A stretch of 64,000 bases of DNA, taken from a virus. The DNA is taken from IMG/VR virus record IMGVR_UViG_3300020048_003367, positions 37,863-101,862 of that record; one strand, written 5' to 3'. This document shows, piece by piece, positions 13,020 to 38,069 of the stretch (position 1 is the stretch's first letter; every line of letters begins with the position of its first letter). The notes beneath the pieces were generated by a model that saw nothing but the letters and a program-made list of their open reading frames with translations, made no database searches and was not told the DNA's origin. The translations under genes and the position numbers were made by a program.

Positions 13020-13495
13020 GCTATAGCTTTTTTTATACGTTGCCAAACACTGGGAGGAGTAGATGGTTTAACAGGGGTAGCTGGCTCAGGTGGTTGTTTA
13101 ACACTACCAGACAATCCCTTCCACATGCTTTTTCCCATGTCAGTCTGCAATTCACTAGGACGAATATCATTACCAAGACTATTGGCATATTGATACATTA
13201 CTTTAGACAAGCCTTGTCCTCTGTTGGCAGGATTTACATAAGTGTAAACAGATTCAAGATATTGTTCGCCATCTTCCTTGCGAGACTTGACAAGAAAATC
13301 TACCCAGGCCAATTCTTTTTTTGTTTGTTGATCAAACAACTTGACATGCAAGACATCGGCGGTGTGAGATCCGTACTGTCGTGTTTCCCCTGAGCTGGTA
13401 AGTAACCACTGGGCCCCTACCAATTGCTGATCTTTAAAACCAGTTTTTGTAGTATCAGGATTTATTTTTTCTCCGACAAATTCTTCAGCTCGCAT
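13016..13495 (-). CDS. GNAT acetyltransferase, putative internal protein
   Basis: YVNPANRGQGLSKVMY acetyl-CoA motif A; MRAEEFVGE N-terminus. Confidence 0.75.
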   Translation of the reverse strand: MRAEEFVGEKINPDTTKTGFKDQQLVGAQWLLTSSGETRQYGSHTADVLHVKLFDQQTKKELAWVDFLVKSRKEDGEQYLESVYTYVNPANRGQGLSKVMYQYANSLGNDIRPSELQTDMGKSMWKGLSGSVKQPPEPATPVKPSTPPSVWQRIKKAIA

Positions 13496-16400
13496 TATGG
13501 CTCCATCACAGGCGCAACTGTAACACCGCCCTGCATGGCACCTGGGTGTTGTCTCAACCAGTCCATGGCCACACGGTTAGCATCACTTTGTACATTACCT
13601 ATACCCGAGAATCGGTGTATTTCGTTGCCCTGTGGATCAAGAATTTGCCATGTGCCACGGAATGTCTGCTGCGGCTGTCCAGGACGAGTCAGGGTTTGCG
13701 GCGCTGGTGCTGTGCCAGGTGCCACGTCAACAATGCCACCTTGTGCCGCGTCAGCAGATGATTGACGCTGACGTTGTAGATCGATTGTGCTGCCTGGAAT
13801 AGGTTCGCTGGCAGTTTGACGAGTTCTCACACCATATAGTTCTGGAGCTTCTCCACGCAGACCCAGGACAGTAATAGCTTCTGCTTCTGCTCCGGCCCTG
13901 TTAGTATGCTCTAGTTCTCTTACAGCAGTGTTGTCGCTGCGTCTATAAATTTGCCATGGTCCGGGTCCGGTTGGCACTAGGTTACGTTGCTGTACTGGGC
14001 GGCCTACTGGTGCGCCCAGTGCTTGATAGTCTGCAGGAATTTCACGAACTTCAATGTCGCTTCGCATGTCTGATCTCTCTGCACGAGTGTTTGACAAGAA
14101 CTGTTCAGCAGCTTCACGACTTGGAAATCTGCGCAACACACTGTGGTCCAATTGCCCGGGAGATCTAACAAAGCGGTCTGCATTAGTTATCCAGATACCC
14201 CAGTTGCCAGTGCCCGGTGCAGCAGCAGGCTTTGGCTCAGGTTCTTCGTATGGTCGCAACATTGTGACTTTGGCTATGGCCAATTGTGATTCTGGAACAT
14301 TCCATTCTTCGGCAGCAACTTGACGTGCTACCTCTTTGGAACCAGCAACAACTTCCATTCTTCGGTTGGCGTCCCATTGAACATTCCACCAATATTTTTG
14401 TCCTGCTGGCGTTTTACCTTTGGCAAAATTTCGTGCCAATTGCTTTTCACGCACCTGACGGATTAGTGCAGCTTTGTCTAGCTCACCGGCCGAGTAGTTG
14501 GCAAACAGTTGTAGAATATCCGGGCCACCTTTTTCTTGCGAGCCTTCCAGCAGCTTGTATAATTTTTTCAAGTATTCTTGACGATATGCTGCAGGGTCAA
14601 TAGCAGCACTCAAGGCCACTGTAAATCTCATAAGTGTGTCTTCAATCTTGCTGAAGTTTGAGTCTAACCAATCACCACCCGGACTACGAAACTCGATGTA
14701 CCCAGTCTTGGTATTAATACTGGTGTACTTGTCAGTGATACCTGTGTGGATGGCCTTGGTAGCAAGGTCTTCCATGTGCTCACGCATCTTGCTCATCACC
14801 TGAGGAGCAACATCGGGATTCTTTTGCAGCATGCCTTTGATCTTGCTGATTGCTGATTTAGCATAGGTGTTGCCTGAACGATCAAACAATTCCAACACAT
14901 ACTCGTCGCCCATGAGCAAGGCCAGTTTAACATAGTCCAGCTTTTCAAGACTATAGTTAGGCACTGAAATGTTAATGTGCAAGCCAGTGCTTTCGTTGGT
15001 ATAGCAACCAGTCTTGTCTGCCCAAGCCTTGACCTTGTTCAGATCTGAGATCATTTCATCTATGGGCATGGGAGGACTCACAAACTCTAGACCTTCATCA
15101 CCGGGATTGTCGCCTTGCAAACTGCCGTCGGGTTCCACCACATAAGTTCCTGCTTCTCGACGTCCACCATGATACTGCCTGCTGGCGTTGACTGGCTTGC
15201 CCATATAACTGGAGAATTCGTCAGCCACTTGATCTATGTCTGCACCTTCGCGGTCAGCGTTCATGTCAGTGTAATAAGGCCATGAAATATCAAAGCCGTT
15301 TTCAATGTCAGTCATGCGGGGATACTTGTCATCCAAGAAACTGCGTTCGTCGTATTCGTCTCTTTGCTCGTCGGAGAACGCTTCAAATGCGTCATCGTAG
15401 ATACGGCCTTGACTTTCGAGCTCGCTAGCAGCAAACTCACGTTCCATCTCGTCTAGTCTGGCACTGATAAGTTGTTGGAAGTCTTCACTTTCTTGTGGTA
15501 GGTCGGGGTTGGCGTCCATGATCTCATCTCGAGCCTGAGCCATGGCTTCATCACGATCAAACAAGTCATTGAGTGAAATATAGTCCGTTATGAACTCTAG
15601 GCCATCGCGGGCCCACGATTCAGCAGTTTGCTCATATTGCCACTCTTGAAATTCGTTTTGTATTTCTTCCAACAAATTATCTGCATCGCGACGAGTGTTG
15701 TAGTCACCATCATGGAAGAAGCTTCTGATGTCTTCAAAGCTTCTGGTGCGTGTATCTTGGTCGTAGTCAGCTTCGTAATCAGGCTCTTGTTCATCAACCC
15801 CAACATCAGGCACAATCATTTCAAATTCCATGCCTGCTTGTGCGCCAGTTCTAGCAGCTTCGGCTCGCAGGTTTTTGCCAGTCATTTTGATTTCGCTCAA
15901 GTACTCAGTTTCCAACAGTGCGAATTCTTGACGAAGGCTTTCGGCCAGTTCTTCTTGAAAACTTTCTGTCACAGCTACATTTCCCATTCTAGCCAATTCG
16001 TATGTAACTAGATTACCACTATCTGCTCTGTATGCTCGATAGCCCCATGCTTTGCTATAACGCTGAACTAATCTATCATATAACTTAGCACGACTTTCAG
16101 GATTTGGCTGAGGCTCACCTGGTTCATAATGAATAGTTGGATCAGTTTCTTTGCTTGCCGAGAACGTCAATCTTGCGGGTTTGTACTCTTTGACATATTG
16201 TTGAATAGCAGATAATACTGTAGCAAAAATACGCGTTGCGTCACCTTCACTAGTAACTTCTTGACTATTGTTTCTATAAAACTCGACTTGAACAGCTTCA
16301 TCACCTTCATCATTTGTCTGTTTATTGAACATGATGTTTAGTGGGCCCCCGTCCGGTAATCTAGCCAATGCGTCAACATCGCCATACGCAGTCTTTTCCC

Positions 16401-18141
16401 ATGTGAAAGGGTATGGTTGGTCAAATGCTTCATTAACATTGTAGGTGGGATCTGTTTTCTGACGAGGCATACCCGGCGGTTGATTGGGATCCTTGGGATC
16501 AATGTCGGTGGTTGTTAGTCCGGTGGCTTCGAGATCCTTGATGTATTTGTGCTCAGTGTCTTCGTCACCAAAGCTCAGTATGGCACTAGGAGGACCTGCA
16601 CCAAAGTCATGCTTGCCGAGGCCTTTCATGTTTGAGATATGCTGGCCTAGCTTGTACCAGTCATACACATCACTAACATCAACTTTTACTGTGCCTGCTG
16701 GCATTGTAGGCGGAGTCTCTGGACCTAGAGGTTCATTTAGATCACGATACTGACCTGGCCCTTGACTCAGTTGCGGCATCTTTGCGCCGTCTTTGAACTC
16801 ACGTAAAGCATTTTTTAGGCTCTTGATCAACAGTGCAGGCTTGCCTTGTGCATCTGTTTGCAAACCCATTTTGTTGGCTTCTTTACCTGTTTGACCAGGA
16901 TGCACATCCACACTCAGTGCTGTCTTGAAACGTGGATCATTCTTTTCAGCAGAGGTAGGAATATAGCCAGAACTTTCTTCAATCTGGCTCATGTCAAAGT
17001 GATCAGGGTGAGCATCAGCCCAGTCACGCATAATCACTCCTGCCATTGCATTAGCTTGGTTCTCCCACTTGCTACCAGTCTCGCCTGCATTGTCGGGTAA
17101 TGGACTTAGCTCATTTTGACGGCAGTGTGCTAGTTCATGCGCAGTGGTACGTAGTATGTCCAGCAAGTGTCTGTTGATTAAGCACACATGCAGTTCATTG
17201 GTATCAGGTTCGTAACGACCAAAGCTGCTGTTCTCTTGGCTCCAGCCATCATCACGATGCAGGTTCACCCGGGGCACTTTTCGGATATCCAGTTTCTTGG
17301 CAGTTTGTGCAATAAAATCACGCACCACGTTTTCAGAGTCTACTTCACTCAGGAACATCTTGGTTTCGGGACTGACACCATTAGGGCTACTGGACTCGCC
17401 AAATCCATAACGCACAGACTTGCGAGGTGTTTCTAATTCTTTAAGGCTGAGTTCACGATCCTTGGCATTGGCTCTAGCTGTGTACAGTTGCTCAATCAAG
17501 CCTTGAGTACGCAACATCTTGAACGCAAGATTCTCAGGACCAAATTCACCATGTGCATCAAGTCCAGCTTGACGCATGGTTTTAATCTTGGCAATCAAGC
17601 TGCCGATACGGTCAGCATCATCTGCTGCCAGGGCAGATTTAATGCGTTCACGCAAATCTTCATACTTGTGACGCACTAGATTCTGATCAATTGCAGCACG
17701 TTTTCTGCGTGGTACTTGAATCCACTCGTTGTTCTTGATGCTGTACTCGCCTAGACTTACCGGAGTCTCTGCAGCATCTTGTACATATAACTCAACGTCT
17801 GCGCCACGAATACGAATGTCATGAGAATCGTTAAATTCGTATTTCTTGGCATTGAATAACTCTCGGTACACTGGATCGGGAGGTATATCTACTACCAAAT
17901 GCAAATCGATATCAGAGTGTTTTGTGTATGAATAAGCTGCGTTCGAGCCAGATATGGTAATATCTTTAACTTTTAGATTGTCTAGTCCTAAAAACTCTTG
18001 AAAATATTCGGCTATTTCTAACAGCTTGGCCTGGACTTCCGGACGCAGATGCTCGTTGGCATCCCACAAACCGGGGTTGAGCCGGTTGTGGAATTTTACT
18101 GCGTCAGCAAGGTTGTAAGTTGACAGTTCATTAAAGTTCAT
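13495..18141 (-). CDS. polyvalent protein: nucleotidyltransferase + HExxH metallopeptidase + amidoligase-like domain
   Basis: GSNA...SDIDLH; TAHELAH; GMEFEM, EPDGSL, LEFVSPP, GLHINIS, YIEFRSPGG. Confidence 0.8.
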   Translation of the reverse strand: MNFNELSTYNLADAVKFHNRLNPGLWDANEHLRPEVQAKLLEIAEYFQEFLGLDNLKVKDITISGSNAAYSYTKHSDIDLHLVVDIPPDPVYRELFNAKKYEFNDSHDIRIRGADVELYVQDAAETPVSLGEYSIKNNEWIQVPRRKRAAIDQNLVRHKYEDLRERIKSALAADDADRIGSLIAKIKTMRQAGLDAHGEFGPENLAFKMLRTQGLIEQLYTARANAKDRELSLKELETPRKSVRYGFGESSSPNGVSPETKMFLSEVDSENVVRDFIAQTAKKLDIRKVPRVNLHRDDGWSQENSSFGRYEPDTNELHVCLINRHLLDILRTTAHELAHCRQNELSPLPDNAGETGSKWENQANAMAGVIMRDWADAHPDHFDMSQIEESSGYIPTSAEKNDPRFKTALSVDVHPGQTGKEANKMGLQTDAQGKPALLIKSLKNALREFKDGAKMPQLSQGPGQYRDLNEPLGPETPPTMPAGTVKVDVSDVYDWYKLGQHISNMKGLGKHDFGAGPPSAILSFGDEDTEHKYIKDLEATGLTTTDIDPKDPNQPPGMPRQKTDPTYNVNEAFDQPYPFTWEKTAYGDVDALARLPDGGPLNIMFNKQTNDEGDEAVQVEFYRNNSQEVTSEGDATRIFATVLSAIQQYVKEYKPARLTFSASKETDPTIHYEPGEPQPNPESRAKLYDRLVQRYSKAWGYRAYRADSGNLVTYELARMGNVAVTESFQEELAESLRQEFALLETEYLSEIKMTGKNLRAEAARTGAQAGMEFEMIVPDVGVDEQEPDYEADYDQDTRTRSFEDIRSFFHDGDYNTRRDADNLLEEIQNEFQEWQYEQTAESWARDGLEFITDYISLNDLFDRDEAMAQARDEIMDANPDLPQESEDFQQLISARLDEMEREFAASELESQGRIYDDAFEAFSDEQRDEYDERSFLDDKYPRMTDIENGFDISWPYYTDMNADREGADIDQVADEFSSYMGKPVNASRQYHGGRREAGTYVVEPDGSLQGDNPGDEGLEFVSPPMPIDEMISDLNKVKAWADKTGCYTNESTGLHINISVPNYSLEKLDYVKLALLMGDEYVLELFDRSGNTYAKSAISKIKGMLQKNPDVAPQVMSKMREHMEDLATKAIHTGITDKYTSINTKTGYIEFRSPGGDWLDSNFSKIEDTLMRFTVALSAAIDPAAYRQEYLKKLYKLLEGSQEKGGPDILQLFANYSAGELDKAALIRQVREKQLARNFAKGKTPAGQKYWWNVQWDANRRMEVVAGSKEVARQVAAEEWNVPESQLAIAKVTMLRPYEEPEPKPAAAPGTGNWGIWITNADRFVRSPGQLDHSVLRRFPSREAAEQFLSNTRAERSDMRSDIEVREIPADYQALGAPVGRPVQQRNLVPTGPGPWQIYRRSDNTAVRELEHTNRAGAEAEAITVLGLRGEAPELYGVRTRQTASEPIPGSTIDLQRQRQSSADAAQGGIVDVAPGTAPAPQTLTRPGQPQQTFRGTWQILDPQGNEIHRFSGIGNVQSDANRVAMDWLRQHPGAMQGGVTVAPVMEP

Positions 18142-19113: not shown

Positions 19114-22047
19114 TTAAATTTTGCGACTGCTTTCTTCCATATAATCAGGATTTTTTGCCTGTTGTTGAATTTTGAGTTGCATATTATCAACTTTAGCAGT
19201 TAATTGTTTTAGCTTGCGATCATGGTCTTTGTCATTTTTCTCGCTGTGGCCCAAGCCACGCTGCACCCATTTTGCAAAGGCCATGTCCTCGTCGCCGCCA
19301 AATTCTGGATAATGTTGCTGTGCAAAGCGTCTAGCTTGAGTGAGTTCTGGATCAGTAGCCAGATCCACGCGGCTACTTTCATAGGTAGCGGCCCAGCCTT
19401 GATTTTCGTCAACTGGTTTGTCTGCTAGTGGGCCACCTGTTACCCAAGCATCGCAGGTTCTACGACTGGCACATTTGAACTTCAGGAACTTGCAGTAGCC
19501 CAAGTCGCCAGCATCAATTACGCCTTCGGCATCTTCGGGACTGCTACTGTCAATACCTTGTGCAATGCAGTCCAAGGTGTCTTGACGAATGTCAAATGCT
19601 GCACAGTTGCCGCACAAGCTGCTTTGTGCTTCTTCCATGCTGTCCAGATTCCACTCATCAACTTTTTTCATCCAGAACTTGGTGTTGGGCAAGTCTGGGT
19701 TGAGTGGGCCGTATCCGTATTCGTTGATGGCTTTTTGTCTGTTGTTGAGATTCAGTGTGATATCTTGTGTGGCAGGTGGACACTTCTTGGCAGCTTCTGT
19801 CATGCCTTCATCATACTTGGGCATTGGTCGTTGCCCAGGGCGGCCTTTAACTCCACGCTTCTCTGTGCTTGGTGGTTTTGTTGGAGGAACAATATCACCC
19901 TGATTTCTAAATGGCTGCGGAGCCTTCTTAGGATTGCGGATATGGATAGGAGCCAGTGGTACTACAAAAGGAGCGCCTTCCGCCACACCTTGTTGACCTT
20001 CATATATCAAACTATCTATACGTTTATATTTAATATTAAACGCATTCATTAATAATTCAACTTCTCGTAAACATTGATCTCTAGCACCGCCCACTAGGTA
20101 AGCACCGTTAAATCTTTTTAATTGTGCTACACTGGTCCAGTTTACTGACAGTGGTTCATCATTTAATTCTTCCATGGCTCCTTGAATCAAAGACTGCTGT
20201 GTCGTGCGTTTGTTGAATGGAGGAAACTGCAATTCTCTGCTGTCGTTTTTGTGTTGTTGATATAACTCACGTATGGTAGCAATAATAGTAGACGGTTCTA
20301 TGCCAGCATCCATCCAGCCACGGAAGTATCCATAGCCCTTGTCCACTATTTGAAAACGGCTCCAGTTAATAGGATTGGTGTCGGGGTCATTGTCATACCA
20401 GTCTGGATCAATGGTATCTTCCCAGTATGTTTGAATCGCAGCCACAGTATCACCGCTGAGTCCTTGGTCTTCTGCGTTGACAAACATCAGCACTGGGCCT
20501 GTTTGTTTATTAACAAAATTAATAATTTGCGGAAACACTGCTGACTCGTCGCCGTCATTCATTCCCGAATATTCGGGCTGAACATCCACTACTATGACTG
20601 GATGTGCTAGACCTTCATTCAACGAGCCTTCCGCCACACCTTTCTCTACGCTTTCTTTAAATTCGTCCTTTGGTGCAGACTTATTCAAATTGTCAATAAT
20701 AGATTTGTGTGCTTTTATAAATGAATCCTCTCTTCGAGTCTGAACTTCAGGATCTCTTTTTCTAGCTGACTCGATTGTACTAACAATAGCACGATAAGCA
20801 TCATTTACAAATTCTTTATTGTTGTTATTTTGAATATATTGATTTAATGTATCTTTGACTTGTGTATGTATTTCAGGATTAGAGTCTTTTGAAATTATGT
20901 ATAAAGTTAATGCTAAGTTTAGATTGGCATATTCGGGAGTAAAAATATCTTTCGCTCCAGAACGTTGCTGTTGAGCCTGTTGTTGTGGTTGCGATTGTTG
21001 TCGAGAACGTCCAGCTTTTGTATACTCATTGAGTTTTTGTAAAATTGCAGCCGTGTAAGCATCCATAAAAGTGTTTGCTGTGCTTATAGCAGTCTTTGCG
21101 CCTCCACGATCTGTAATAGACGGAGGCACTGCATCAGCGGCACGATAAGCCGAATCGGTAGCATAATCAATTACCTCTAATACATTATAGCCATTGGTGT
21201 CCATACAATACGCCAATACAGCTTTGTTTACATTCTGTGCAATGTAGTCCATTATTCTGCTTTGCTCTCCACCAAATTTAACTGTGAAAAACTTTCCGAT
21301 TGCAGTTTGTGCTTTTTGAACAGCAATACGGGCCGCAACGTCGAACTTAACCTCTTGAGCCTTAGCACCACCAGCTGCACCTGCTACTGCCGCTGCACCC
21401 ATGCCCTTTAAGAATCCTCTACGGTCTATTTCTGATAAGGAGCCTTCCGCCACACCTTGCTCACCACCAATAGCAGCGTCTAACAGTTTGACCACTGTAG
21501 CAGCTAACTTGGCGTTGCCTTGCGCTTTAGGGTACAAGCTCATCACAAGAGCTGTTTTGCGGCGGTCGTCTAGACTGGGCCATGCACTACGGATCTGTGT
21601 AGCTGACGTCATGCCTGGACCAAACTCCACTGTGGGCAAGTAGGCCATGTAAGCATGTTTTGCAAATGGTTCTAACTTTTTGGCACCCAGCAAAGGCTGC
21701 AAGTAGCTAGGTGAGCCGTCTTTTTTAACACCACCGGGTAGTGGTTGCGACTTGGCGTCTTTTTCTGAACGAACAAAGATCAAGGTGTCTTGTTCGGGAT
21801 TGTACTTGCTGGTAATTTCAGCAGCACGAAATGGTGAGCTTACTTGTACAAAGTGTCCAGCTTCTACACCGGCCAATTTGGCCAGCTTTTCTTTTACAGC
21901 AAACGGAAAAGGTCTTGAACTGGTATCATTGGTTGCAGCAACATACACCTCAGCGTTGGGGAAAGTTCTTTTTGCGCTTTGATAAAGGGCATGGTGCCCT
22001 GCGTGGTAGGGATGGAAACCGCCCGGCATGATTACAATTGTGGTCAT
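19114..22047 (-). CDS. modular polyprotein: HxGH nucleotidyltransferase, Tat-signal cassette, isochorismatase-like cassette, Cys-rich domain
   Basis: PGGFHPYHAGH; DRRGFLKG; VIVVDVQ...VGGARDQC; CGNC...C...C...C; three GVAEG repeats. Confidence 0.8.
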   Translation of the reverse strand: MTTIVIMPGGFHPYHAGHHALYQSAKRTFPNAEVYVAATNDTSSRPFPFAVKEKLAKLAGVEAGHFVQVSSPFRAAEITSKYNPEQDTLIFVRSEKDAKSQPLPGGVKKDGSPSYLQPLLGAKKLEPFAKHAYMAYLPTVEFGPGMTSATQIRSAWPSLDDRRKTALVMSLYPKAQGNAKLAATVVKLLDAAIGGEQGVAEGSLSEIDRRGFLKGMGAAAVAGAAGGAKAQEVKFDVAARIAVQKAQTAIGKFFTVKFGGEQSRIMDYIAQNVNKAVLAYCMDTNGYNVLEVIDYATDSAYRAADAVPPSITDRGGAKTAISTANTFMDAYTAAILQKLNEYTKAGRSRQQSQPQQQAQQQRSGAKDIFTPEYANLNLALTLYIISKDSNPEIHTQVKDTLNQYIQNNNNKEFVNDAYRAIVSTIESARKRDPEVQTRREDSFIKAHKSIIDNLNKSAPKDEFKESVEKGVAEGSLNEGLAHPVIVVDVQPEYSGMNDGDESAVFPQIINFVNKQTGPVLMFVNAEDQGLSGDTVAAIQTYWEDTIDPDWYDNDPDTNPINWSRFQIVDKGYGYFRGWMDAGIEPSTIIATIRELYQQHKNDSRELQFPPFNKRTTQQSLIQGAMEELNDEPLSVNWTSVAQLKRFNGAYLVGGARDQCLREVELLMNAFNIKYKRIDSLIYEGQQGVAEGAPFVVPLAPIHIRNPKKAPQPFRNQGDIVPPTKPPSTEKRGVKGRPGQRPMPKYDEGMTEAAKKCPPATQDITLNLNNRQKAINEYGYGPLNPDLPNTKFWMKKVDEWNLDSMEEAQSSLCGNCAAFDIRQDTLDCIAQGIDSSSPEDAEGVIDAGDLGYCKFLKFKCASRRTCDAWVTGGPLADKPVDENQGWAATYESSRVDLATDPELTQARRFAQQHYPEFGGDEDMAFAKWVQRGLGHSEKNDKDHDRKLKQLTAKVDNMQLKIQQQAKNPDYMEESSRKI
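19977..21457 (-). repeat. three copies of the 14-bp direct repeat CTTCCGCCACACCT
   Basis: exact copies at 19977, 20628 and 21444. Confidence 0.95.
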
Positions 22048-23038: not shown

Positions 23039-23692
23039 TCAAGTATTTATACGCTGAACAATAGGCACAGTCTTTCTAAAAGGCCTGGGCATGATCAGAG
23101 CCAGCATGGTAGCATACACAGGATCGTCATAGTCTACATAGTAGTGATCCGGGAACCAGTGCTTGCCGGGCCAGGAGCCTTTCAAAAACTGCTTCATTCC
23201 CGGGCTAGGTTTTATAGCAGTGCCTTGTGCGTCAAAGAACTCTCGAAGAGCCGGAATCTTGTCTCCAGGAAATTGTTGTGCTTTGAAGTAGCTGCGTAGT
23301 TTATGCGTGGGCTCTAGTAACAGCACAGTGTCGCGTGGCCGATCAATCACAGCTTGCTTGATTCTTGCGTTACATACAAATGCACAGTCCGCAATCAAGT
23401 TGTCAGCCAGAGCGGGTGTGTTTGTGTAGATTGTGCCCCAGCTACCCGACACCATCAGTTTGAACGGTTCTGTGATACTGTTGATGTGGGCCAATGCAGT
23501 CTGTAGATTCGGCACAACATCGCCGGAATACCGAGCCTGGCTCGTCCAGCTCATTCTAATACTAATATAGTCGTTAAACTTTACGCTATCACGAATCCTG
23601 AGAGTATGTGCTTCTTTCAAAAAGAAACTAAACGCATACTCCCACTTGTCAAAGTACAGCCGATCGCGGCTTTCAGTTTTGAGTGTCAACAA
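23039..23692 (-). CDS. hypothetical protein
   Basis: long ORF downstream of clpA; start uncertain. Confidence 0.6.
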   Translation of the reverse strand: MLTLKTESRDRLYFDKWEYAFSFFLKEAHTLRIRDSVKFNDYISIRMSWTSQARYSGDVVPNLQTALAHINSITEPFKLMVSGSWGTIYTNTPALADNLIADCAFVCNARIKQAVIDRPRDTVLLLEPTHKLRSYFKAQQFPGDKIPALREFFDAQGTAIKPSPGMKQFLKGSWPGKHWFPDHYYVDYDDPVYATMLALIMPRPFRKTVPIVQRINT

Positions 23693-25937
23693 CGATGATC
23701 CCTTCTTGATTGACTCCGGGCTGCGCGGTGTGTTCCACAGCAAACACAGCAGCATCATTCTCGATATCCACTGTGACTACACAATTGTCAAGACGTTCAA
23801 ACAAGATCTTCTTTGACAGAGGTACACGGATAATCTCGTCAATTTTGCGACTCAAGGGGCGAGCACCCATTTTGCTGTCGTAACCTTTATCGGCCAAGTA
23901 GTCCACAACTGCTTCAGTAATGTTGAGTCGGATACCTTTGGGTGTCAAGCTGGTCTTGAGTTGATCTACGAATTTTACCACAATCTTCTTGATGGCCAGA
24001 GTATCTAGCTTACCAAACTTTACAATAGCATCAATACGATTTCGCAGCTCAGGACGGAAGAACTCTTTCAAAGCACGGTCATCTTCACCTGTTTTCTCTT
24101 GTGCTCCAAAGCCAATAGCATTGACTTCGCTATCACGTGCGCCCAGGTTAGATGTCATGATGATAATGGTGTTCTTGCATGACACTCTCTTGCCGTTGGC
24201 GCCGGTAATGTGTCCTTCATCCAGCATTTGCAGCAAGATGTTGGTGACATCGGGGTGTGCTTTTTCGATCTCGTCAAACAAGATCACAGCAAACGGATTC
24301 TTGCTGATGTCTGAAATCAGTTTGCCGCCGCCCAAGTTGCCATCTTCAAAGCCCACATAGCCCGGAGGTGCACCAATTAGACTTGATACAGTGTGTTTTT
24401 CTTGGAACTCACTCATATCATAGCGCAACATCTTCATTTCAAGATTGTCTGCTAGTGCCTTGGCCAGTTCAGTTTTGCCTGTACCAGTTGGGCCCAAGAA
24501 CAAGAAGCTGCTCATGGGCTTGGCTTCGTTGCCAATGCCTGCAAAACTGATGTACACACGTTCTAACACTGTGTCCACTGCTGAGTCTTGTCCATACAAG
24601 CGTTGCTTGACGTTGCTTTCCAGTTCCATGATCTTGACACTGCGTTCGTTTTGCAGTTTGTCCACAGGCACGCCTGCTACACGACTCAGTTGTTCTTCGA
24701 TCATGCTCTTGGTTATGGTTGTAAGACCTGCATCCTTGACACGTTCTCTAGCACATGCTGCATCAATAAGGTCAATACTCTTGTCCGGATTCTTGCGATC
24801 ATGGATGTATCGGTTTGCAAGTTCAACTGCGGCCAAGATAGCTTCGGTGTCAATTAGTACGTTATGAAACTGTTCAAGTCTAGGACTAAGACCAATGAGA
24901 ATTTGTTCAGTAGTGTTGGCATCTGGCTCGTCAATACTCAAGCGATAGAAGCGGCGCATAAGAGCCCGATCCTTTTCAAAGCTTTCGTAATACTCTTCCC
25001 AGGTAGTGCTTGCTACAACTTTCAAGTGGCCCTTGGTAATAGCCGGTTTTAGCATGTTGGCAAAGTCCAAGCTAGATTGTGACCCTGCTCCTGCACCTTT
25101 CATGGTATGCGCTTCATCCACAAACAAGATGCAGTTCTTTTTGCTTTCAAGAGCACCAATCACTTGTTTGAACTTTTCTTCAAACTCACCGCGGTACTTT
25201 GATCCAGCCAACAGCGAACCAATCTCCAGGCTCCAGACTTCGTGTCCCTTGATAAACTCAGGCACACGCCCGGCAATGATTTCCTGGGCCAGACCATCAA
25301 TAATAGCAGTCTTGCCCACACCAGGATCGCCTACCATGAGCACGTTGGCCTTGAAGCGGCGTGCTAGCACAGTGATCATTTCTTGCAGTTCTGTGGCACG
25401 ACCAATCATGGGCTCCAACTGACCTTTTTGTGCTTGAGCAGTGATGTTGGTGCAGTACTCGGTAAGAATCTCATCAGCTTGATTTGAAGTCATTCGAACT
25501 TCAGCAGCAGGCTGATAATTTTTGTGCCAGAACTCCACAAACTCTGACTTCTTCAAGCCATGCTTGAGCATGAAGTATTGTGCATGGCTATTGCTTTCAC
25601 TCATGATACTAAGAAATACATCAATCACGCTGAGTGTGCGACGACCTGTAAACATCACTTGCACGTTAGCGCGATTGAATACTCGTTCCAGTGCAGATGT
25701 TTTCTTTGGGCTGTCATTGCTGGCACGGGCCAGGCTCACCAGGCTCACTATATAAGCCATCAAGTCAATGTCTAATTGTTCTACATCCATACCATATTTG
25801 GCCAAGCATTTTCTAAAAGGCACATGCCGTACCATGGCCAAGGTCAAGTGCTCGGTTGTTACGTATTCGTGTCCAAGTTCACGTGCCAGTTGCACAGATT
25901 GATCAACGATGTTTTCGATTTCAGCTGAGGGATTCAT
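23673..25937 (-). CDS. clpA: ATP-dependent Clp protease ATPase subunit ClpA-like
   Basis: Clp-N domain, Walker A GDPGVGKT and GPTGTGKT, GYVG pore loop, IGF ClpP-docking loop, no ClpB middle domain. Confidence 0.92.
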   Translation of the reverse strand: MNPSAEIENIVDQSVQLARELGHEYVTTEHLTLAMVRHVPFRKCLAKYGMDVEQLDIDLMAYIVSLVSLARASNDSPKKTSALERVFNRANVQVMFTGRRTLSVIDVFLSIMSESNSHAQYFMLKHGLKKSEFVEFWHKNYQPAAEVRMTSNQADEILTEYCTNITAQAQKGQLEPMIGRATELQEMITVLARRFKANVLMVGDPGVGKTAIIDGLAQEIIAGRVPEFIKGHEVWSLEIGSLLAGSKYRGEFEEKFKQVIGALESKKNCILFVDEAHTMKGAGAGSQSSLDFANMLKPAITKGHLKVVASTTWEEYYESFEKDRALMRRFYRLSIDEPDANTTEQILIGLSPRLEQFHNVLIDTEAILAAVELANRYIHDRKNPDKSIDLIDAACARERVKDAGLTTITKSMIEEQLSRVAGVPVDKLQNERSVKIMELESNVKQRLYGQDSAVDTVLERVYISFAGIGNEAKPMSSFLFLGPTGTGKTELAKALADNLEMKMLRYDMSEFQEKHTVSSLIGAPPGYVGFEDGNLGGGKLISDISKNPFAVILFDEIEKAHPDVTNILLQMLDEGHITGANGKRVSCKNTIIIMTSNLGARDSEVNAIGFGAQEKTGEDDRALKEFFRPELRNRIDAIVKFGKLDTLAIKKIVVKFVDQLKTSLTPKGIRLNITEAVVDYLADKGYDSKMGARPLSRKIDEIIRVPLSKKILFERLDNCVVTVDIENDAAVFAVEHTAQPGVNQEGIIVVDTQN

Positions 25938-28467: not shown

Positions 28468-29604
28468 TTAGCAGTTCCACTTGCGCAGGGCCAGGGCCTT
28501 GCGAGTTGGTTTGCCGTTGGGTTTTTTCATTGGTCCCTTGACGCCCGACATTCTTGCACAGAATGATTTGCGGCGCTTGGCTGCTTTTGATCCTGGCTTG
28601 AGTTTGCTTGGCTTGGTGGTCACGGCCATTTGTAATTTGCTGCCAGGATTCTCTCTGCGATAGCTAGCAACGCCTTTGGCATTTAGTCCACCCTTGGCGC
28701 TCTTGCCTGCTTTGCGGCGCCATGCGGCGGTTTCGAATAGTATTTGATCGTCTAGTCGTTCAAGTGTTTCCCATACTTGATCAACGCTGACTTGATCTTC
28801 TTGTGCCAGTTCTTCTGCTAGTGATTCCATGGCTTCAAACATCTCGTCAATTTCAGGATCTACTTCTTCTGAGTCTTCTTCACTCTCCATGTAATCCCAA
28901 ACAGCCACCAGCATTGACTTGGCCACTGCAATCTTTTCTTGACACCATTCGGGCAAGTTGTCACCGGTTTGAATTAGATCATCAATGCCTGCTACAGCAC
29001 GTTCCAATGTTTCAAGATTGTTGTCGGCCATGCCTGCTTCGTCATTGTATTCGGCGTTGTAGCCTTCCGACACGGATTCATCCCATTGTTTCTTTTCTGC
29101 GTAACGTTCCATGTCGTCTACTGCTTTTTGTCCGTAACGGTCTTTTACGTATTTTCTAATGTTTATCAAAATGTCGCCGCTTTTGTTTATCTGTCTGACA
29201 TCAGGATGGTTACCGCGTCCTGCCTGCAAATGTTTGCTGTATCTGTCCCAAACTTTCCTAAGACTGTGATCGTCGCCTTCCGCCACACCTTCTTTTTGAT
29301 AGTGATTTTTGAATAATGAATTACATTTTGGACAACGATCTTGTTCCGGAGTTGCAGCAAATGTTCTCAAACCAACACCAGTATCTCTACCAGGATGATC
29401 TGCTAAACCATGTTTAGGTGTTTTTAGATGAACTTTATCGCCGGAGCCTTCCGCCACACCTTGCTCTACTGATTCAGCAGGCACACAGTTGTTGACTCTG
29501 ACCCCGCCCTTGACCTTGGTCTTGGGGTTGCCAATCTTTTTGCCTGTCCAGCATTTGGGGTCCAAGCGAACTTTTTCTTCGGTTTTAATTTCGTTAAATT
29601 TCAT
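28468..29604 (-). CDS. modular putative internal head protein (CW..G..VNNCV module, GVAEG cassette, basic C-terminal domain)
   Basis: MKFNEIKTEE N-terminus; two GVAEG repeats; AAWRRKAGKSAKGGLNAKG...RRKSFCARM...ALRKWNC tail. Confidence 0.7.
   Translation of the reverse strand: MKFNEIKTEEKVRLDPKCWTGKKIGNPKTKVKGGVRVNNCVPAESVEQGVAEGSGDKVHLKTPKHGLADHPGRDTGVGLRTFAATPEQDRCPKCNSLFKNHYQKEGVAEGDDHSLRKVWDRYSKHLQAGRGNHPDVRQINKSGDILINIRKYVKDRYGQKAVDDMERYAEKKQWDESVSEGYNAEYNDEAGMADNNLETLERAVAGIDDLIQTGDNLPEWCQEKIAVAKSMLVAVWDYMESEEDSEEVDPEIDEMFEAMESLAEELAQEDQVSVDQVWETLERLDDQILFETAAWRRKAGKSAKGGLNAKGVASYRRENPGSKLQMAVTTKPSKLKPGSKAAKRRKSFCARMSGVKGPMKKPNGKPTRKALALRKWNC
29277..29461 (-). repeat. two copies of the 14-bp direct repeat CTTCCGCCACACCT
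   Basis: exact copies at 29277 and 29448, 171 bp apart. Confidence 0.95.
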
Positions 29605-32609: not shown

Positions 32610-33569
32610 TTATTTGTTGGGTGAAATTCTACGAGCAATAGGTTGCCAGGTTTGTTGCAGTCGTGCCATGCTGGCTCTAACACCAGCTGGGGTGTGTTCT
32701 GCAGGAGTGATGTACATCATGTTTTCACGAAACTTGGCAGCAGCTTCAGCTGAACGAATTGCTGGCACAAATTGATCATGGTACCAAGTTTGAATTTCTT
32801 GTGGAGTTCCTGGTGGCAACGTCATGTTCCAGCAACCGTGAATGCTGAGCCCAGGTGCTGCCTTGCTCATTAGTGGCACATGTTCCAGTCCTGGCAAGGG
32901 TCTAGTATCAGCAATGCCAATAAACTTCAGTTTGCCTGCTTGCACATGCGGATAACCCACTGCCACAGGAGTTACACCAAATTCCACATGCCCGCCCATG
33001 ACATCTAGCAGTGCTTGTGCAGGTCCTTTGTACATGACCGTTTGCAACTGATCACCGTTGGGAACGTTGAGTTTGTCCACTAGATATTCTACAGCCAGCT
33101 TGTGTCCACCACCGCCAATCGCCACAGTGATCTTTTCACGTTTGCGAATTGCTGCCACAAACTCTTCAGGTGTGTTGATTTTGCTTTTGGGATGTGCCCA
33201 AAACGCTAGTGGACTGCGGGCAATGTTGGCAATGGGCTCCAGATCCATGGGATTGTACTTGATCATGTTGGAGTACCATATTTCAGGAGTTACCCAATTT
33301 GATTGGCAAGCAGGTACACTAATGGTGTGTCCATCTCGGGGCACAGTCACAAAGTGGTTGATAGCAATGTTGCCGTCAGCACCTGGACGATATTCAGGCA
33401 CAAATTTGGCACCAGTCTTTCGTTCCACAATGTCTGCTACGATCCGAAATGAGATTTCGTTGCCGGCGCCGGGACCATTGGGGAATATAACTGTGACTGG
33501 TTTTGTGGGTTGCCAAGCAAATGCTAATGCAGGCACCATGAGCAAAGTTAGTAGAAATTTTTTGATCAT
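32610..33569 (-). CDS. tripartite tricarboxylate transporter substrate-binding protein (Bug/TctC)
   Basis: signal peptide, WQPTKPV, PGADGNIA, YKGPAQALLDVMGGHV, PPGTP. Confidence 0.88.
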   Translation of the reverse strand: MIKKFLLTLLMVPALAFAWQPTKPVTVIFPNGPGAGNEISFRIVADIVERKTGAKFVPEYRPGADGNIAINHFVTVPRDGHTISVPACQSNWVTPEIWYSNMIKYNPMDLEPIANIARSPLAFWAHPKSKINTPEEFVAAIRKREKITVAIGGGGHKLAVEYLVDKLNVPNGDQLQTVMYKGPAQALLDVMGGHVEFGVTPVAVGYPHVQAGKLKFIGIADTRPLPGLEHVPLMSKAAPGLSIHGCWNMTLPPGTPQEIQTWYHDQFVPAIRSAEAAAKFRENMMYITPAEHTPAGVRASMARLQQTWQPIARRISPNK

Positions 33570-33624: not shown

Positions 33625-34359
33625 ATGAACACCAAAATTTTTAACCTAATTACAAAAAATTTGCAAGAGGCATTTAATTTGCCCAAGTATGCAAATATTT
33701 TGATTGACGCAGATACCGTGGTCAATTCATTACCGTGGACCCCGGCACGTTACTCAAAGTTCAAGGATGCAGTAGAAGCAGAGCTTGCTTTGCCTTGCGA
33801 GTATCGCGGAACACTGAAAGAAATTGTTGCGGATCTAAGCGAGCGTTATACGCATCGTTTCTTTTCAGAGATTTGGCGTCCAAGAACAGGTGAGTATGAT
33901 CACTCAGGTTGGGCCTTGGTAGAAGAAGTCAACAAGCTGAACCCTGAACGGGTCTTGGATGTAGGCTGTGGATACCACCCATTCAAAGGACGTATCAACA
34001 ACATCACTGGCATTGATCCCTACAATGACGCTGCTGACTATGAAGTTGATATCTTGGACTACAAGGTAAAACCTCAAAGTCATGATGTTGTGATTGCCCT
34101 GGGCAGTATCAACTTCAACAGCAGAGATGAAATTGAACAGCGTTTTGCTCACTGTGTGGAATTGTTGAAACCTGGCGGCAAGTTCTTTTTGCGAGCCAAC
34201 CCAGGTATCTCACACAAGACAGGTCCGTATGTGGATATCTTTCCTTGGAGTTTTGAAGTTGTGAATGACTTTGCTGAAAAGTACAATCTGCGTTTGGACA
34301 CATTCAAAAAAGAACCTACCGAACTGGGTAGGTTGTATTTTGTGTATACTAGACTTTAA
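33625..34359 (+). CDS. class I SAM-dependent methyltransferase with small helical N-terminal domain
   Basis: VLDVGCG, GIDP, LKPGGK. Confidence 0.85.
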   Translation: MNTKIFNLITKNLQEAFNLPKYANILIDADTVVNSLPWTPARYSKFKDAVEAELALPCEYRGTLKEIVADLSERYTHRFFSEIWRPRTGEYDHSGWALVEEVNKLNPERVLDVGCGYHPFKGRINNITGIDPYNDAADYEVDILDYKVKPQSHDVVIALGSINFNSRDEIEQRFAHCVELLKPGGKFFLRANPGISHKTGPYVDIFPWSFEVVNDFAEKYNLRLDTFKKEPTELGRLYFVYTRL

Positions 34360-34715
34360 CGCCCAGCCACTGCTAGTGCAGCACCTTTGTTGAAACTGGG
34401 GCTGTACGGGCTAGTGCCTGAACTAAGGCTATTACGCTTGCTCCAGTCATATCCTGCTCTATGACCTGAGCAGTCCTTGGTACATTGTGATCCTAGAAAG
34501 CTGAGTTCTTTCAGTTGTTCACGTGTCCATTTGTCGGGGATCACACCGTGTTTGGCCACAAACTTGTCGTGTAGTTGTTTGCCAGTGATACCGTGATCGC
34601 GGGCAATGGTTTGCATCATGTGATCAATTGCGCTGTAACTTTTGGGATCATCAAGATCTTTTTCAAGCTTTTCCACAGCGCCTTCTTTCAAATATGCAAA
34701 CTCGCTGGCTCTCAC
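34356..34715 (-). CDS. putative internal head protein
   Basis: MRASEFAYLKE N-terminus; CTKDCSGHRAGY module after LKE. Confidence 0.65.
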   Translation of the reverse strand: MRASEFAYLKEGAVEKLEKDLDDPKSYSAIDHMMQTIARDHGITGKQLHDKFVAKHGVIPDKWTREQLKELSFLGSQCTKDCSGHRAGYDWSKRNSLSSGTSPYSPSFNKGAALAVAGR

Positions 34716-34819
34716 ACCGTTTCCTTTAGCTGACGACGATACTCTGCTAGTGCCGCTGTTAATGACTCTGCTTCAATGATATAGGTCTTGTCACCTGACT
34801 TGAATGTGTATGTTCTCAT
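34712..34819 (-). CDS. 35 aa hypothetical protein (absent from ORF track)
   Basis: MRTYTFKSGDKTYIIEAES...; overlaps both neighbours by 4 nt. Confidence 0.5.
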   Translation of the reverse strand: MRTYTFKSGDKTYIIEAESLTAALAEYRRQLKETV

Positions 34820-36777
34820 TTTTTAGGTTGTTGTGCTGTGGGTACGTTACGATACACACGCTTGTTGGGATCATATACTGTTTTCATGGGGCCAGCACCA
34901 GCCAATTGCTTGAGGCGGGCCATTGCTGCATCAAAACGATCAGCGTCCATGTTTCCAACTTTTTCGCCTTCGTCCAAGCCATCAGTTTGTGTAGCACCTT
35001 CGCCGTCGGCATCAAAAGCTACCATTTCTACTTTGGGCCACATACGTGCAGGCACATACAGAATACCCGAAGTTTCGTCATGATCGATCTGGTCGCCAAA
35101 GCGAGCCATTACTGCATTGTATGCCCGTTCACTGTTGACGCTAAAGCCCACGGTGTCAGTATCGTCGATACCGCTGTATCCGCCTTCCGCCACACCTTGA
35201 TCGTCTTTGTTCGCCACCTGGCCATAGCCGCGCTGTCTCATTTCACGGTCAATTACTTTATCAACAAATGCTCCCGCTGAATTTTTTCTTGGCTTTGATT
35301 GGTCTTTTCTTGATGCGACAAAATTTGCAAGGCGTTGTCCGTCCATGTTCTTAAATGCCGACACTGCGCCTGACGGCGTAACCATGTCAGGTGCAGCACC
35401 TACGCCCCAACCTTGTGAGGCACGCTTGATGCCTTTTACAACATCACCGAAGCCTTCCGCCACACCTTGCTTTGGTTTGTATTTCTCTGCTTGCTGTAGA
35501 TGATGTTCCTTGGCTCTGCCTTTAGAGATTTTAGCGGCAGATAAATGATGGTGATATAACTCATCTCTACTAGTCGGTACGCCTGGATGTTGATCCAAGC
35601 CTTCCGCCACACCTTTGATAGTATAGTCTGGACGACTGCGACCTGTTTCTTGATGTAGGTCTTTGAGTGCTTCTATGGCTTCTTCCCTACTGTCGATAAA
35701 ATCATATCCACGGTCTGCACGATAATGAAAGGCGCCCCAACTATTACCATCTTGGTAAATCTCACCAACTGGCTTGCCATTTTTTGACTTGATTACTTCT
35801 GCGTTGGGGTAGATAGTATCGTTCGAGCCTTCCGCCACACCTGTTAATTTTGGTCTTTTATTGCCCAATGGTGAATCGCCGCGGCGTTGGACAATTCTGT
35901 ATGTTCCCATGCCTGTGTCTTCAACATCGGCACCATACATAGTAGCAATTTGTCTAGCAATCTTTTTATCATTAATAGTCACTAACTGCGGACCAGAGCT
36001 GTCTCCGCTAGTGTTCATCAAGTCGTGTAGATAGTTATACTCGTCTTCGCCATACTTGCTAGGTCTGAAATCACCTCTCCGAACTCTGGTATGATATCCT
36101 TCTTTGTCTGTGTCTTCCGCCACACCTTGCTCATTCATGGCCTCCCAATCTTCGTGACTGATGTAGAAGTCACTGTCAGGATCGTAGTATTTGCCTTCTT
36201 GCTTGTCGTAGTACACAACTTTACCACTCTTGGTATGGAATGGACCTTCTAGTCCCGGGCGCTCTGTATAACGTTCTCGATCAATATCAGGAACAACTTG
36301 ATATCCTTCTGCTACAGACTTTTCCCGCATGGCAGCACGAACTTCTGCACGAGTCTTGCCGTACTTGCGCTTAAACTCTTCTTCACTCATGGTTTTGTCT
36401 CGAAGATCTTGACTCAACTCTTTGACTTTACCTTCGGTGACCTGTTGTTCGCCGGGGCCATACGCAGTGATCACGATGTTGCCCCGAAGTTCGGGCTGTT
36501 GTTTCAACAATTCCAACGCTGCTGCATTGGCTGCTGCTTTGCCAGCGAATGCATCACTGATATGTTCTTGTGAGTCTTTTTGCTTGAGCCAGAAACGTCC
36601 AGTCTCGGCATACTGCTGGCGAGAATTGTTGTCAGCACGAATTCGTGCATCAATTTCTTCACTGCCAGCAGGCTCACGTTCACGTTCCAGTCGCCCACGT
36701 TGAGTGGCGTCCATACTTTGTTGTTCTGGATCTGTGTGCCAGTTAGTGCCTTCGTTGAATAATTGATTGAGTCTCAT
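34816..36777 (-). CDS. modular putative internal head polyprotein with five GVAE repeats
   Basis: MRLNQLFNE N-terminus; short unrelated modules separated by GVAE(G/D). Confidence 0.75.
   Translation of the reverse strand: MRLNQLFNEGTNWHTDPEQQSMDATQRGRLEREREPAGSEEIDARIRADNNSRQQYAETGRFWLKQKDSQEHISDAFAGKAAANAAALELLKQQPELRGNIVITAYGPGEQQVTEGKVKELSQDLRDKTMSEEEFKRKYGKTRAEVRAAMREKSVAEGYQVVPDIDRERYTERPGLEGPFHTKSGKVVYYDKQEGKYYDPDSDFYISHEDWEAMNEQGVAEDTDKEGYHTRVRRGDFRPSKYGEDEYNYLHDLMNTSGDSSGPQLVTINDKKIARQIATMYGADVEDTGMGTYRIVQRRGDSPLGNKRPKLTGVAEGSNDTIYPNAEVIKSKNGKPVGEIYQDGNSWGAFHYRADRGYDFIDSREEAIEALKDLHQETGRSRPDYTIKGVAEGLDQHPGVPTSRDELYHHHLSAAKISKGRAKEHHLQQAEKYKPKQGVAEGFGDVVKGIKRASQGWGVGAAPDMVTPSGAVSAFKNMDGQRLANFVASRKDQSKPRKNSAGAFVDKVIDREMRQRGYGQVANKDDQGVAEGGYSGIDDTDTVGFSVNSERAYNAVMARFGDQIDHDETSGILYVPARMWPKVEMVAFDADGEGATQTDGLDEGEKVGNMDADRFDAAMARLKQLAGAGPMKTVYDPNKRVYRNVPTAQQPKK
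35184..36127 (-). repeat. five copies of the 14-bp direct repeat CTTCCGCCACACCT
   Basis: exact copies at 35184, 35454, 35601, 35829 and 36114. Confidence 0.95.
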
Positions 36778-37349
36778 TTGATACCTGCTGCTGATTGTAG
36801 TTGTTTTACTAGGTCACTGGGTTCGTGTATTTTTCTAGTTGGCAAACCTGCTGCGGTGCGCCATTCGTTGAGACCTTCTTGATTTTCTTCACGATAGGCA
36901 TTCGGAGTCAATGGGATAGTGTCAGCCATGGTTTCTTCGCTCCAAGGATAGTCTTTTTTGCGATAGGTCATGGTCCAGTCATCTAGCTCGTGTTCAGTCA
37001 AGCTGCTTAAATCATCCAACAAGCGTTGTACGTTACCCGGTACTGTGCTGCGACGCCGCAGTTCCACATATACCAAGTAGCGCCCGGGCTTGATCTCTCC
37101 GGGGCTTCGATCTGCATCCAGCACAAAATCGTAACCTTTTTCAAACCAAGCCATTAGATCTTTGGCAGCTTGCGGGTCACGTACATAGAAACTCAAGACC
37201 ACCACGTCGGCATCATCTCCCATTTTGGCAGCAAATTCATCCACGTGAATGGACGGCTTGATCATGCCCTCCATGTCACGATACTGAAGCCCTTCAAGCA
37301 CTAGTGGCTTGCCGGGATTAAACGGGTTGTTGTAAACTTTGTTGTGCAT
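36774..37349 (-). CDS. hypothetical phage protein
   Basis: 191 aa; FEKGYDFVLDAD; ends QLQSAAGIK. Confidence 0.65.
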   Translation of the reverse strand: MHNKVYNNPFNPGKPLVLEGLQYRDMEGMIKPSIHVDEFAAKMGDDADVVVLSFYVRDPQAAKDLMAWFEKGYDFVLDADRSPGEIKPGRYLVYVELRRRSTVPGNVQRLLDDLSSLTEHELDDWTMTYRKKDYPWSEETMADTIPLTPNAYREENQEGLNEWRTAAGLPTRKIHEPSDLVKQLQSAAGIK

Positions 37350-37884
37350 CTTGAGCCTGTTCGTCGCTTTGTACTGCGTCTTTGTCTAGATCTTGCTCGT
37401 AGGCTTGATCCAGGTCATCAAGCTCAATGTCTTGATCTTCCATTTCGATACTGCCAGTGCGAATATCGTTCATCAAGGCCTTGGGCATGGTGATTGATAC
37501 CAGCCACACTTCCTTGGTGGTCAACTTGGCTTTTTTAGTGCCTGCACGGTAGTCACTAGGATCTGTAATTTTAACAGGGATTTGAATCTCTTTTTTCTGG
37601 TACTCAACTTCGCAGTCAAATGGTAACAGTCGTCGGCCGCCACGTGGGTCGGGCATCATTTTCAAAGGCCACATAAACACACAAGTCACACGGTATTTGC
37701 CAATTTCTGGGCCAGCTACCAGTTCACCCAGTTCCCAGTTGTTGAATGCGTAAAGATCAACTTCGTCCAGCACACGTTCAAAGTCCAAGAGTGTGGTAAT
37801 ACTACCATCACTCATGTAAATGTCACGGATGTTGTCGGCAACTTGCCAGTAATCTTCTTTATTTTTAAAGAGTTCTTTGTCCAT
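37318..37884 (-). CDS. hypothetical phage protein
   Basis: LLDFERVLDE...MPDPRGG; TAAATA 4 nt upstream. Confidence 0.65.
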   Translation of the reverse strand: MDKELFKNKEDYWQVADNIRDIYMSDGSITTLLDFERVLDEVDLYAFNNWELGELVAGPEIGKYRVTCVFMWPLKMMPDPRGGRRLLPFDCEVEYQKKEIQIPVKITDPSDYRAGTKKAKLTTKEVWLVSITMPKALMNDIRTGSIEMEDQDIELDDLDQAYEQDLDKDAVQSDEQAQDAQQSLQQPV

Positions 37885-38069
37885 GCTATATTTAGTCTTT
37901 GCGTGAGTAATAGTGTGCAACTCTATGCAATGCAGATTTCTAGCTGGATTGTGGTGTTTGCCGCCAGGTCAGTATTTAGCGACCTGGAACACCAATTTCA
38001 ATACTCACATATAGTTGTGTGCAGCACCGTAAATACCTGGTCCGAAAGGATCAACCAGGAGTACACACT

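Follow-up and report, generated by a model that had tools for sequence, protein, structure and literature searches.

When one short DNA sequence is repeated in frame along a single phage gene, it can be asked whether that sequence matters for the protein, for the exchange of the DNA, or for both. This question is raised by P0001, an open reading frame (ORF) of a giant phage found in a 64,000-nucleotide (nt) stretch of DNA, hereafter the window, which covers positions 37,863 to 101,862 of the IMG/VR virus record IMGVR_UViG_3300020048_003367. P0001 contains four exact copies of GGTGTGGCGGAAGGC, which encodes GVAEG, and a fifth copy with one mismatch, which encodes GVAED (Table 1). The five repeats are 15 to 17 nt long each, and their spacings of 270, 147, 228, and 285 nt equal 90, 49, 76, and 95 codons. 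Three diverged joints in other codons were located in the same ORF: VTE/G (residues 113 to 116), SVAE/G (residues 154 to 158), and GLDE/G (residues 600 to 604), where the slash marks the putative cleavage position. These results confirm the original prediction, made from the DNA letters and their translations, that cassettes of 95, 76, 49, and 90 codons lie between five repeats and that further modules end in VTEG, VAEG, or LDE with diverged DNA. The same prediction compared the layout with a repeat-spacer array; since the repeats are translated in frame within one long ORF, this likeness is formal only.

P0001 is a mosaic: about nine small modules (S1 to S9), each folding independently, are connected by flexible joints. 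A large protein collection yielded 639 relatives, each of which covered only 9 to 59% of the polyprotein at identities of up to 100%. Full-length segments recur among them in other orders (S7..S4..S5, S7..S3, S3..S5, and S4..S1). Frequently, relatives share the frame S1-S2 ... S8-S9 and vary in the interior: the modules with diverged joints, S1/S2 and S8/S9, form the frame common to many relatives, and the interior cassettes bounded by exact repeats, S4 to S7, are the variable part. A profile of S5, the commonest cassette, matched 197 cluster representatives, in which the domain lies at any position in proteins of 58 to 1782 amino acids (aa). No CRISPR-like polarity of acquisition was seen among these proteins, as cassettes occupy any position.

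The same variability is evident at the syntenic locus, where the gene order is TctC-like gene, methyltransferase, small gene, polyprotein, two virion genes, and PhoH. In the two closest relatives (G003 and G004, with DNA polymerases 79% and 82% identical), the flanking genes of this locus are 62 to 90% identical. The syntenic polyproteins, of 633 and 378 aa, share only their last ∼42 residues with P0001; S9 is the only module kept, and the entire interior is replaced. Furthermore, a family of small proteins has the same leader, S5, and tail and a different insert between two joints, that is, a single-cassette insertion polymorphism. The variable orders, the replaced interior, and the differing single-cassette insertions are at odds with a protein that folds as one unit with invariant module order, and the reordered segments together with the syntenic replacement led us to reject a single conserved multidomain protein. 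The independent, exchangeable cassettes that had been proposed from the DNA alone are thus borne out.

To define the units of exchange, we compared cassette and joint DNA on IMG/VR loci. The blastn blocks of S5 run from joint to joint (gene nt 936 to ∼1180) in ∼25 loci, starting at the first base of one joint and ending with the final base of the following one. Locus L126 (16 kb) resembles the whole 101-kb record in nothing but the 244-nt S5 unit, which is 98.4% identical. In other loci, cassettes are 90 to 95% identical, compared to 64 to 79% for the backbone genes. Together, these comparisons show that the modules circulate as units among uncultured T4-type giant phages of one aquatic clade, with breakpoints exactly at the joints, and we regard the facts of the cassette mosaic as very nearly certain.

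Single cassettes also exist as separate proteins. S5 occurs as stand-alone ORFs of 58 to 61 aa, with a Met where the joint would be, and S3 has its 81-aa stand-alone homolog in a cultured T4-type phage, Vibrio phage 1.081.O, whose cassette is the sole match to the polyprotein among isolated phages. Mapping of the segments onto the relatives in the protein collection gave no homolog of S6. An AlphaFold model gives S5 a confident fold of four strands and a helix, with a predicted local distance difference test score (pLDDT) of 81.5, and the 11 C-terminal residues that bear the joint are disordered. The model of the whole chain has confident islands and a predicted template modeling (pTM) score of 0.32; 6 of the 8 joints and the leader fall in segments with a pLDDT of <50. 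Whole-protein MAFFT alignments of mosaic relatives misplace modules, and since the alignment behind the whole-chain model is therefore poor, we read this model for its pattern of order and disorder only. P0001 matched no Pfam family, one family of unknown function in PHROGs, and nothing among PDB sequences, and family matches were sparse among 68 relatives. The S5 fold had no Foldseek match in the PDB; its best VIA Z score of 6.3 lies below the noise level stated for that tool, and in BFVD only uncharacterized small phage proteins matched. These family and fold searches thus lend no support to the anti-defence role considered in the original prediction, which is purely conjectural.

The DNA of the joints is far more uniform than expected by chance. 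Within the 101,862-nt record, the 15-mer occurs in nine exact copies and one copy with one mismatch. Every copy is in frame and on the same strand, and the copies are spread over three genes: P0001 and two sister polyproteins. As a random 15-mer is expected ∼2e-4 times in 101,862 nt, a chance origin was rejected. Codon bias was likewise rejected as the cause, since the probability of this codon string given GVAEG is 0.0018 under the phage's own codon usage and the joint uses GCG, which accounts for 7% of the phage's Ala codons. In IMG/VR, at least 120 stretches contain the exact 15-mer; of the 120 listed, 110 have it within an ORF of 100 aa or more, in the frame that reads GVAEG. Across 186 distinct joint contexts, the 15-mer is fully conserved together with the preceding (C)AA, beyond which conservation drops to background level. 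Loci retrieved by their cassette peptides, and not by the joint, carry the same 12 nt at 67 of 106 GVAE sites, and most of the remaining sites differ at one synonymous position. In the library of papers searched, those that contain GVAEG are concerned with subjects other than phages. In the simplest account, the joints would be copies of one another because crossovers occur within them; as every exchange would copy the joint, joints beside unrelated cassettes would come to share one sequence, the rare GCG included.

The peptide encoded by the joints suggests a second role. T4 gp21 cleaves after Glu in I/LxE (PMC12991175, PMC5694885), and the prohead proteases of giant phages likewise cleave after Glu (PMC5694885). 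Orthologous joints keep a hydrophobic-x-E motif, followed by G in nearly all cases, in which the P1 Glu is essentially invariant, while the other positions and the DNA drift: the joint at the end of S1 reads VTE, VSE, ITE, or VAE, and the joint before S9 reads LDE, LGE, MKE, MDE, or VDE. Because hydrophobic-x-Glu-Gly persists while the DNA drifts, selection acts on the joint peptide, independently of its codon-locked form. In three relatives with long contigs (G001 to G003), we found a T4-type head module with a Peptidase_S77 protease, a gp22-like scaffold dense in such Glu sites, including VAE/G and VTE/S, and a Gp23 capsid protein with ..LLE/G near its start. In addition, signals of the twin-arginine translocation (Tat) type (RRGFLKG plus a hydrophobic stretch) sit 3 to 7 residues after a joint in 9 of 9 cases in the family, and a signal at this position implies that the joint must be cut to free its N terminus. 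Altogether, the joint V/L-x-E/G is probably a prohead-protease site that is cut after Glu.

The N terminus of P0001 points to the phage head. Its leader, MRLNQLFNE/G, resembles MKTYQEFIAE/A, MELITELFDE/D, and MAKINELLRE/S, which start IPII and IPIII, Alt, and gp24, respectively, in the T4 record; the match is at the level of the pattern only. A regular expression for the leader matched 22 of 104 complete joint-bearing ORFs and 30 of 1349 other ORFs in related loci (odds ratio, 11.8; P = 3e-13), and in the source record it matched 1 of 130 ORFs, which is P0001. The two co-oriented genes upstream have homologs annotated as virion structural proteins in phages PA5oct and Atu_ph07, of which PA5oct gp189 carries the mark ESI-MS/MS (electrospray ionization-tandem mass spectrometry). 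Both phages have the same PhoH-linked gene pair without a polyprotein downstream. The T4-like leader, the hydrophobic-x-Glu joints, the T4-type head module of the relatives, and the upstream virion genes make head packaging and injection of the products plausible, and we lean slightly toward this fate.

These elements can be assembled into a mechanism, which we consider rather likely on the basis of sequence comparisons: P0001 would be the counterpart of the T4 internal proteins, fused into one cassette-built chain that is cut at its joints, packaged, and injected, and the joint would also be the crossover point. The leader would take the polyprotein into the prohead core, where the T4-type S77 prohead protease would cut after the Glu of each hydrophobic-x-Glu joint (VAE/G, VTE/G, and LDE/G). 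The head would retain about nine products of about 5 to 12 kDa, which would accompany the DNA into the next host. Crossovers would fall in the joint, so that each exchange regenerates a canonical joint.

Table 1. Modules, joints, and genes of the polyprotein system, in window coordinates; residues are those of P0001
Feature	Position	Strand	Description
P0001	34816-36777	-	Polyprotein ORF, 653 aa
Leader	36751-36777	-	N-terminal, residues 1-9, MRLNQLFNE/G, like T4 capsid-targeting sequence; pLDDT <50 over residues 1-11
S1	36433-36750	-	Residues 10-115; frame module, usually N-terminal in relatives; end VTE/G
S2	36307-36432	-	Residues 116-157; helical frame module; end SVAE/G in non-canonical codons
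S3	36115-36306	-	Residues 158-221; matches phrog_13298 and 81-aa stand-alone gene of Vibrio phage 1.081.O
Joint 1	36112-36126	-	GVAE/D, one mismatch to 15-mer
S4	35830-36114	-	Cassette, 95 aa
Joint 2	35827-35841	-	GVAE/G, exact 15-mer
S5	35602-35829	-	Cassette, 76 aa; four strands and a helix; commonest cassette
Joint 3	35599-35613	-	Exact 15-mer
S6	35455-35601	-	Cassette, 49 aa; predicted long helix
Joint 4	35452-35466	-	Exact 15-mer
S7	35185-35454	-	Cassette, 90 aa
Joint 5	35182-35196	-	Exact 15-mer
S8	34969-35184	-	Residues 532-603; frame module; end GLDE/G
S9	34819-34968	-	Residues 604-653; C-terminal frame module
Sister polyprotein	19114-22047	-	977 aa; three exact joints
Sister polyprotein	28468-29604	-	378 aa; two exact joints; very basic DUF6321 C terminus
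Upstream gene pair	36774-37920	-	Two genes (191 and 200 aa) in the orientation of P0001, whose start is overlapped by the first

Several observations weigh against this mechanism. Members of the family are all metagenomic. The S77 protease and head module present in G001 to G003 were not found in the 101-kb record, which is estimated to be 25% complete, and the protease proposed for P0001 is consequently deduced from the relatives. T4 prefers Leu or Ile at P3 and the joint has Val, which makes the assignment a conservative guess. The leader expression matches only about one fifth of the complete joint-bearing ORFs, and the 977-aa sister lacks a leader, its enzyme domain coming first. The T4 late promoter TATAAATA had 3 matches compared to 1.7 expected, none of them upstream of the operon. 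An action in the cytoplasm would explain cargo with Tat signals better than a capsid role would. At the DNA level, a homology of 15 to 18 nt is short for ordinary homologous recombination, and among S5 orthologs synonymous codons were kept at 84% in the two flanking joints versus 78% in the cassette (P = 0.10). In the five most diverged copies of S5, the corresponding counts, summed by hand from the same ortholog table, were 41/47 in the joints and 209/315 in the cassette. Because codon retention differs so little between joints and cassette, strong site-by-site constraint on the joint DNA is not apparent, and we infer that its identity reflects copying more than such constraint.

The alternative that survives best, which we nevertheless hold to be unlikely, accepts cleavage at the same joints and places it in the cytoplasm of the producing cell, where the products would act, some of them after export by the Tat system. 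The cutter would be the prohead protease working on a soluble substrate or another Glu-specific protease, and the polyprotein would be an expression strategy. This alternative stays viable because of the Tat-type signals that directly follow joints and because T4 gp21 alone cuts a cytosolic host protein in vivo (PMC12991175); in addition, the enzyme modules of the 977-aa sister fit it. However, P0001 and many relatives bear a leader like the T4 capsid-targeting sequence, the gene shares an operon with homologs of virion proteins, and we found no other protease that is peculiar to this system.

A second alternative, which strikes us as improbable, starts from the DNA: a 17- to 18-nt core would be the target of a dedicated recombinase or homing-type endonuclease that moves cassettes in frame, as in an integron, and the resemblance to a protease site would be secondary. 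Indeed, the element is sharply bounded and codon-locked, includes a rare codon, and stands in 186 unrelated contexts in a single frame and orientation. Single cassettes have been transferred precisely between diverged phages, and insertion variants with the same leader, S5, and tail carry different inserts. However, none of the three joint-bearing genes has a recombinase or endonuclease gene as its neighbour, and the core has no inverted-repeat or hairpin structure. Joints drift at a near-neutral rate among orthologs, and the diverged joints retain the peptide motif but not the DNA. A related proposal, for which we see an equally slim chance, is that the ∼18-nt joint is dual-coded, being at once a protease site and the DNA recognition site of a dedicated exchange machinery, which would make the system an in-frame coding analogue of the integron. 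If so, giant phages could reshuffle their repertoire of injected effectors.

That the joints are flexible linkers in an uncleaved beads-on-a-string protein, with a repeat that reflects gene assembly only, is very unlikely. Their small residues and predicted disorder would suit linkers, but Tat signals inside a chain that is never cut would serve no purpose, stand-alone versions of cassettes exist, orthologous joints keep exactly hydrophobic-x-Glu-Gly while other positions vary, and the motif equals that of the lineage's own protease substrates. Finally, a role of the repeat in RNA, as a Shine-Dalgarno-like AGGUG pause or an RNA-processing site with the peptide as a by-product, can practically be dismissed: synonymous positions are conserved and AGGTG does lie inside the core, but no start codon is found at a usable spacing, the diverged joints lose the RNA sequence and keep the peptide, and unrelated flanks make an extended structure impossible.

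The two sister polyproteins show that P0001 is not the only joint-bearing gene of the record. In the 977-aa sister, the first module has a weak cytidylyltransferase-like match with an HxGH motif, and the second begins with a Tat-type signal 7 residues after a joint. The DUF6321 domain of the 378-aa sister found 537 phage records by tblastn, mostly T4-type cyanophages and pelagiphage podoviruses, and in G004 only the C-terminal 204 aa of this sister are conserved (83%). Between two polyprotein genes lies a gene for a 754-aa ClpA/Lon-like "ATP-dependent protease" (23673-25937, minus strand; phrog_4871; E value, 5e-241). We considered this gene as the source of a joint-specific protease and rejected it, as a ClpA-annotated gene is present in the corresponding region of PA5oct without a syntenic polyprotein.

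Leader-like N termini are also found on smaller proteins. Just downstream of P0001, a 119-aa gene with a GTG start (34356-34715, minus strand) begins RASEFAYLKE/G, and its G004 ortholog begins MRAQEFVTE. Both starts are strikingly like the T4 leader MKTYQEFIAE, so the gene may encode a further small protein destined for the head. Only the last 54 aa are conserved between the two proteins. The widespread mini-frame family of metagenomic proteins of ∼90 to 220 aa (P0141, P0187, P0189, P0192, P0193, P0217, P0221, and others) opens with a leader (MTNKSIRDYINLIE or MKTLREMMDLVE) and closes with a conserved acidic tail that ends in ..IDxLFRK; between them lie one or two variable cassettes. Many of its members have only the leader and the tail in common.

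The remainder of the 101,862-nt source record, whose estimated completeness of 25% is given above, has the gene content of a giant phage with T4-type replication genes, including DNA polymerase, clamp loader, PhoH, endolysin, and tail fibres. The DNA polymerase is nearest to those of Sinorhizobium phage Phosso and Agrobacterium phage Atu_ph07 (47 to 51%), neither of which has a match to the polyprotein, and the 12-kb neighbourhood of the polyprotein gene had no megablast match among isolated phages. The TctC-like gene of the syntenic locus (32610-33569, minus strand) encodes a periplasmic solute-binding protein of the TctC/Bug family (Pfam E value, 2.5e-24) that is 86% conserved in G003 and G004. 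Farther away, a 1548-aa protein (13495-18141, minus strand) has an amidoligase-like region and a weak nucleotidyltransferase match. Plus-strand ORFs of 60 to 158 aa overlap the polyprotein gene at 34804-35280 and 36298-36762 and probably arise from the composition of the coding strand.

The movement of ∼230-nt cassettes between phages with 65 to 79% identical backbones, with breakpoints at an 18-nt coding repeat, is in itself unusual for a protein-coding gene. If the proposed mechanism is right, abundant aquatic giant phages carry their first-strike cargo, across a whole clade, in the form of polyproteins whose modules are traded at one standard joint, and the joint is a natural motif serving as both protease site and recombination junction. 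The leader and the GVAE/G joints would then be a signature with which hundreds of candidate injected phage proteins could be harvested from metagenomes, most of them small and of unknown function and some with export signals. The arrangement would also provide a ready-made design for loading several foreign proteins into T4-type capsids.

How does this system compare with known ones? Unlike in CRISPR (clustered regularly interspaced short palindromic repeats) arrays, the repeats are translated within one long ORF and cassettes are found at any position. As with integron cassettes and shufflons, short conserved DNA sites bound exchangeable units. Integron sites are non-coding, structured attC sequences recognized by the integrase; in shufflons, Rci acts on inverted repeats. 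In contrast, the sites described here are direct, ∼18 nt long, translated in frame, and set in unrelated flanks, with no recombinase among the neighbours. Multi-core precursors of ribosomally synthesized and post-translationally modified peptides (RiPPs), such as the cyanobactin precursor PatE, have conserved recognition and cleavage sequences that flank hypervariable cassettes in one ORF. RiPP cores comprise 6 to 20 residues and are modified by tailoring enzymes, whereas the cassettes of P0001 are folded domains of 42 to 115 residues in a phage structural context.

Closer parallels come from phage heads and injected proteins. In the giant phages phiKZ and SPN3US, which have ejection and inner-body proteins, the prohead protease cleaves many head proteins behind the Glu of A/S/G-x-E and breaks up propeptides at several sites (PMC5694885). 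The ejection and inner-body proteins are encoded by separate paralogous genes with long propeptides and not by arrays of unrelated cassettes, and no conservation of the sites at the DNA level is reported. Polyvalent proteins are likewise multidomain and highly mosaic and are predicted to be packaged, injected, and proteolytically released (PMC5512222). They contain known conflict domains and often their own zincin-like peptidase; P0001 has no recognized domain and no match to a peptidase family in cis. A uniform repeated joint such as that of P0001 is not described in the polyvalent-protein papers (the word "linker" is absent from PMC5512222).

The T4 internal proteins are the closest precedent. 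They form a highly diverse, defence-related set in which only the targeting sequence is conserved (PMC3012670). P0001 resembles IPI, IPII, IPIII, and Alt in its short N-terminal leader ending in hydrophobic-x-Glu, in the predicted cutting after Glu by a T4-type prohead protease, and in the small head-carried, injected products that would result. In both systems, the content is hypervariable among related phages, which in our case takes the form of a replaced syntenic interior and of cassettes that are closer than the backbone. T4 differs in having a separate gene with its own leader for each protein; in P0001, up to nine putative cargoes are joined in one ORF by internal joints that are predicted cut sites, are conserved as DNA, and mark the points of exchange.

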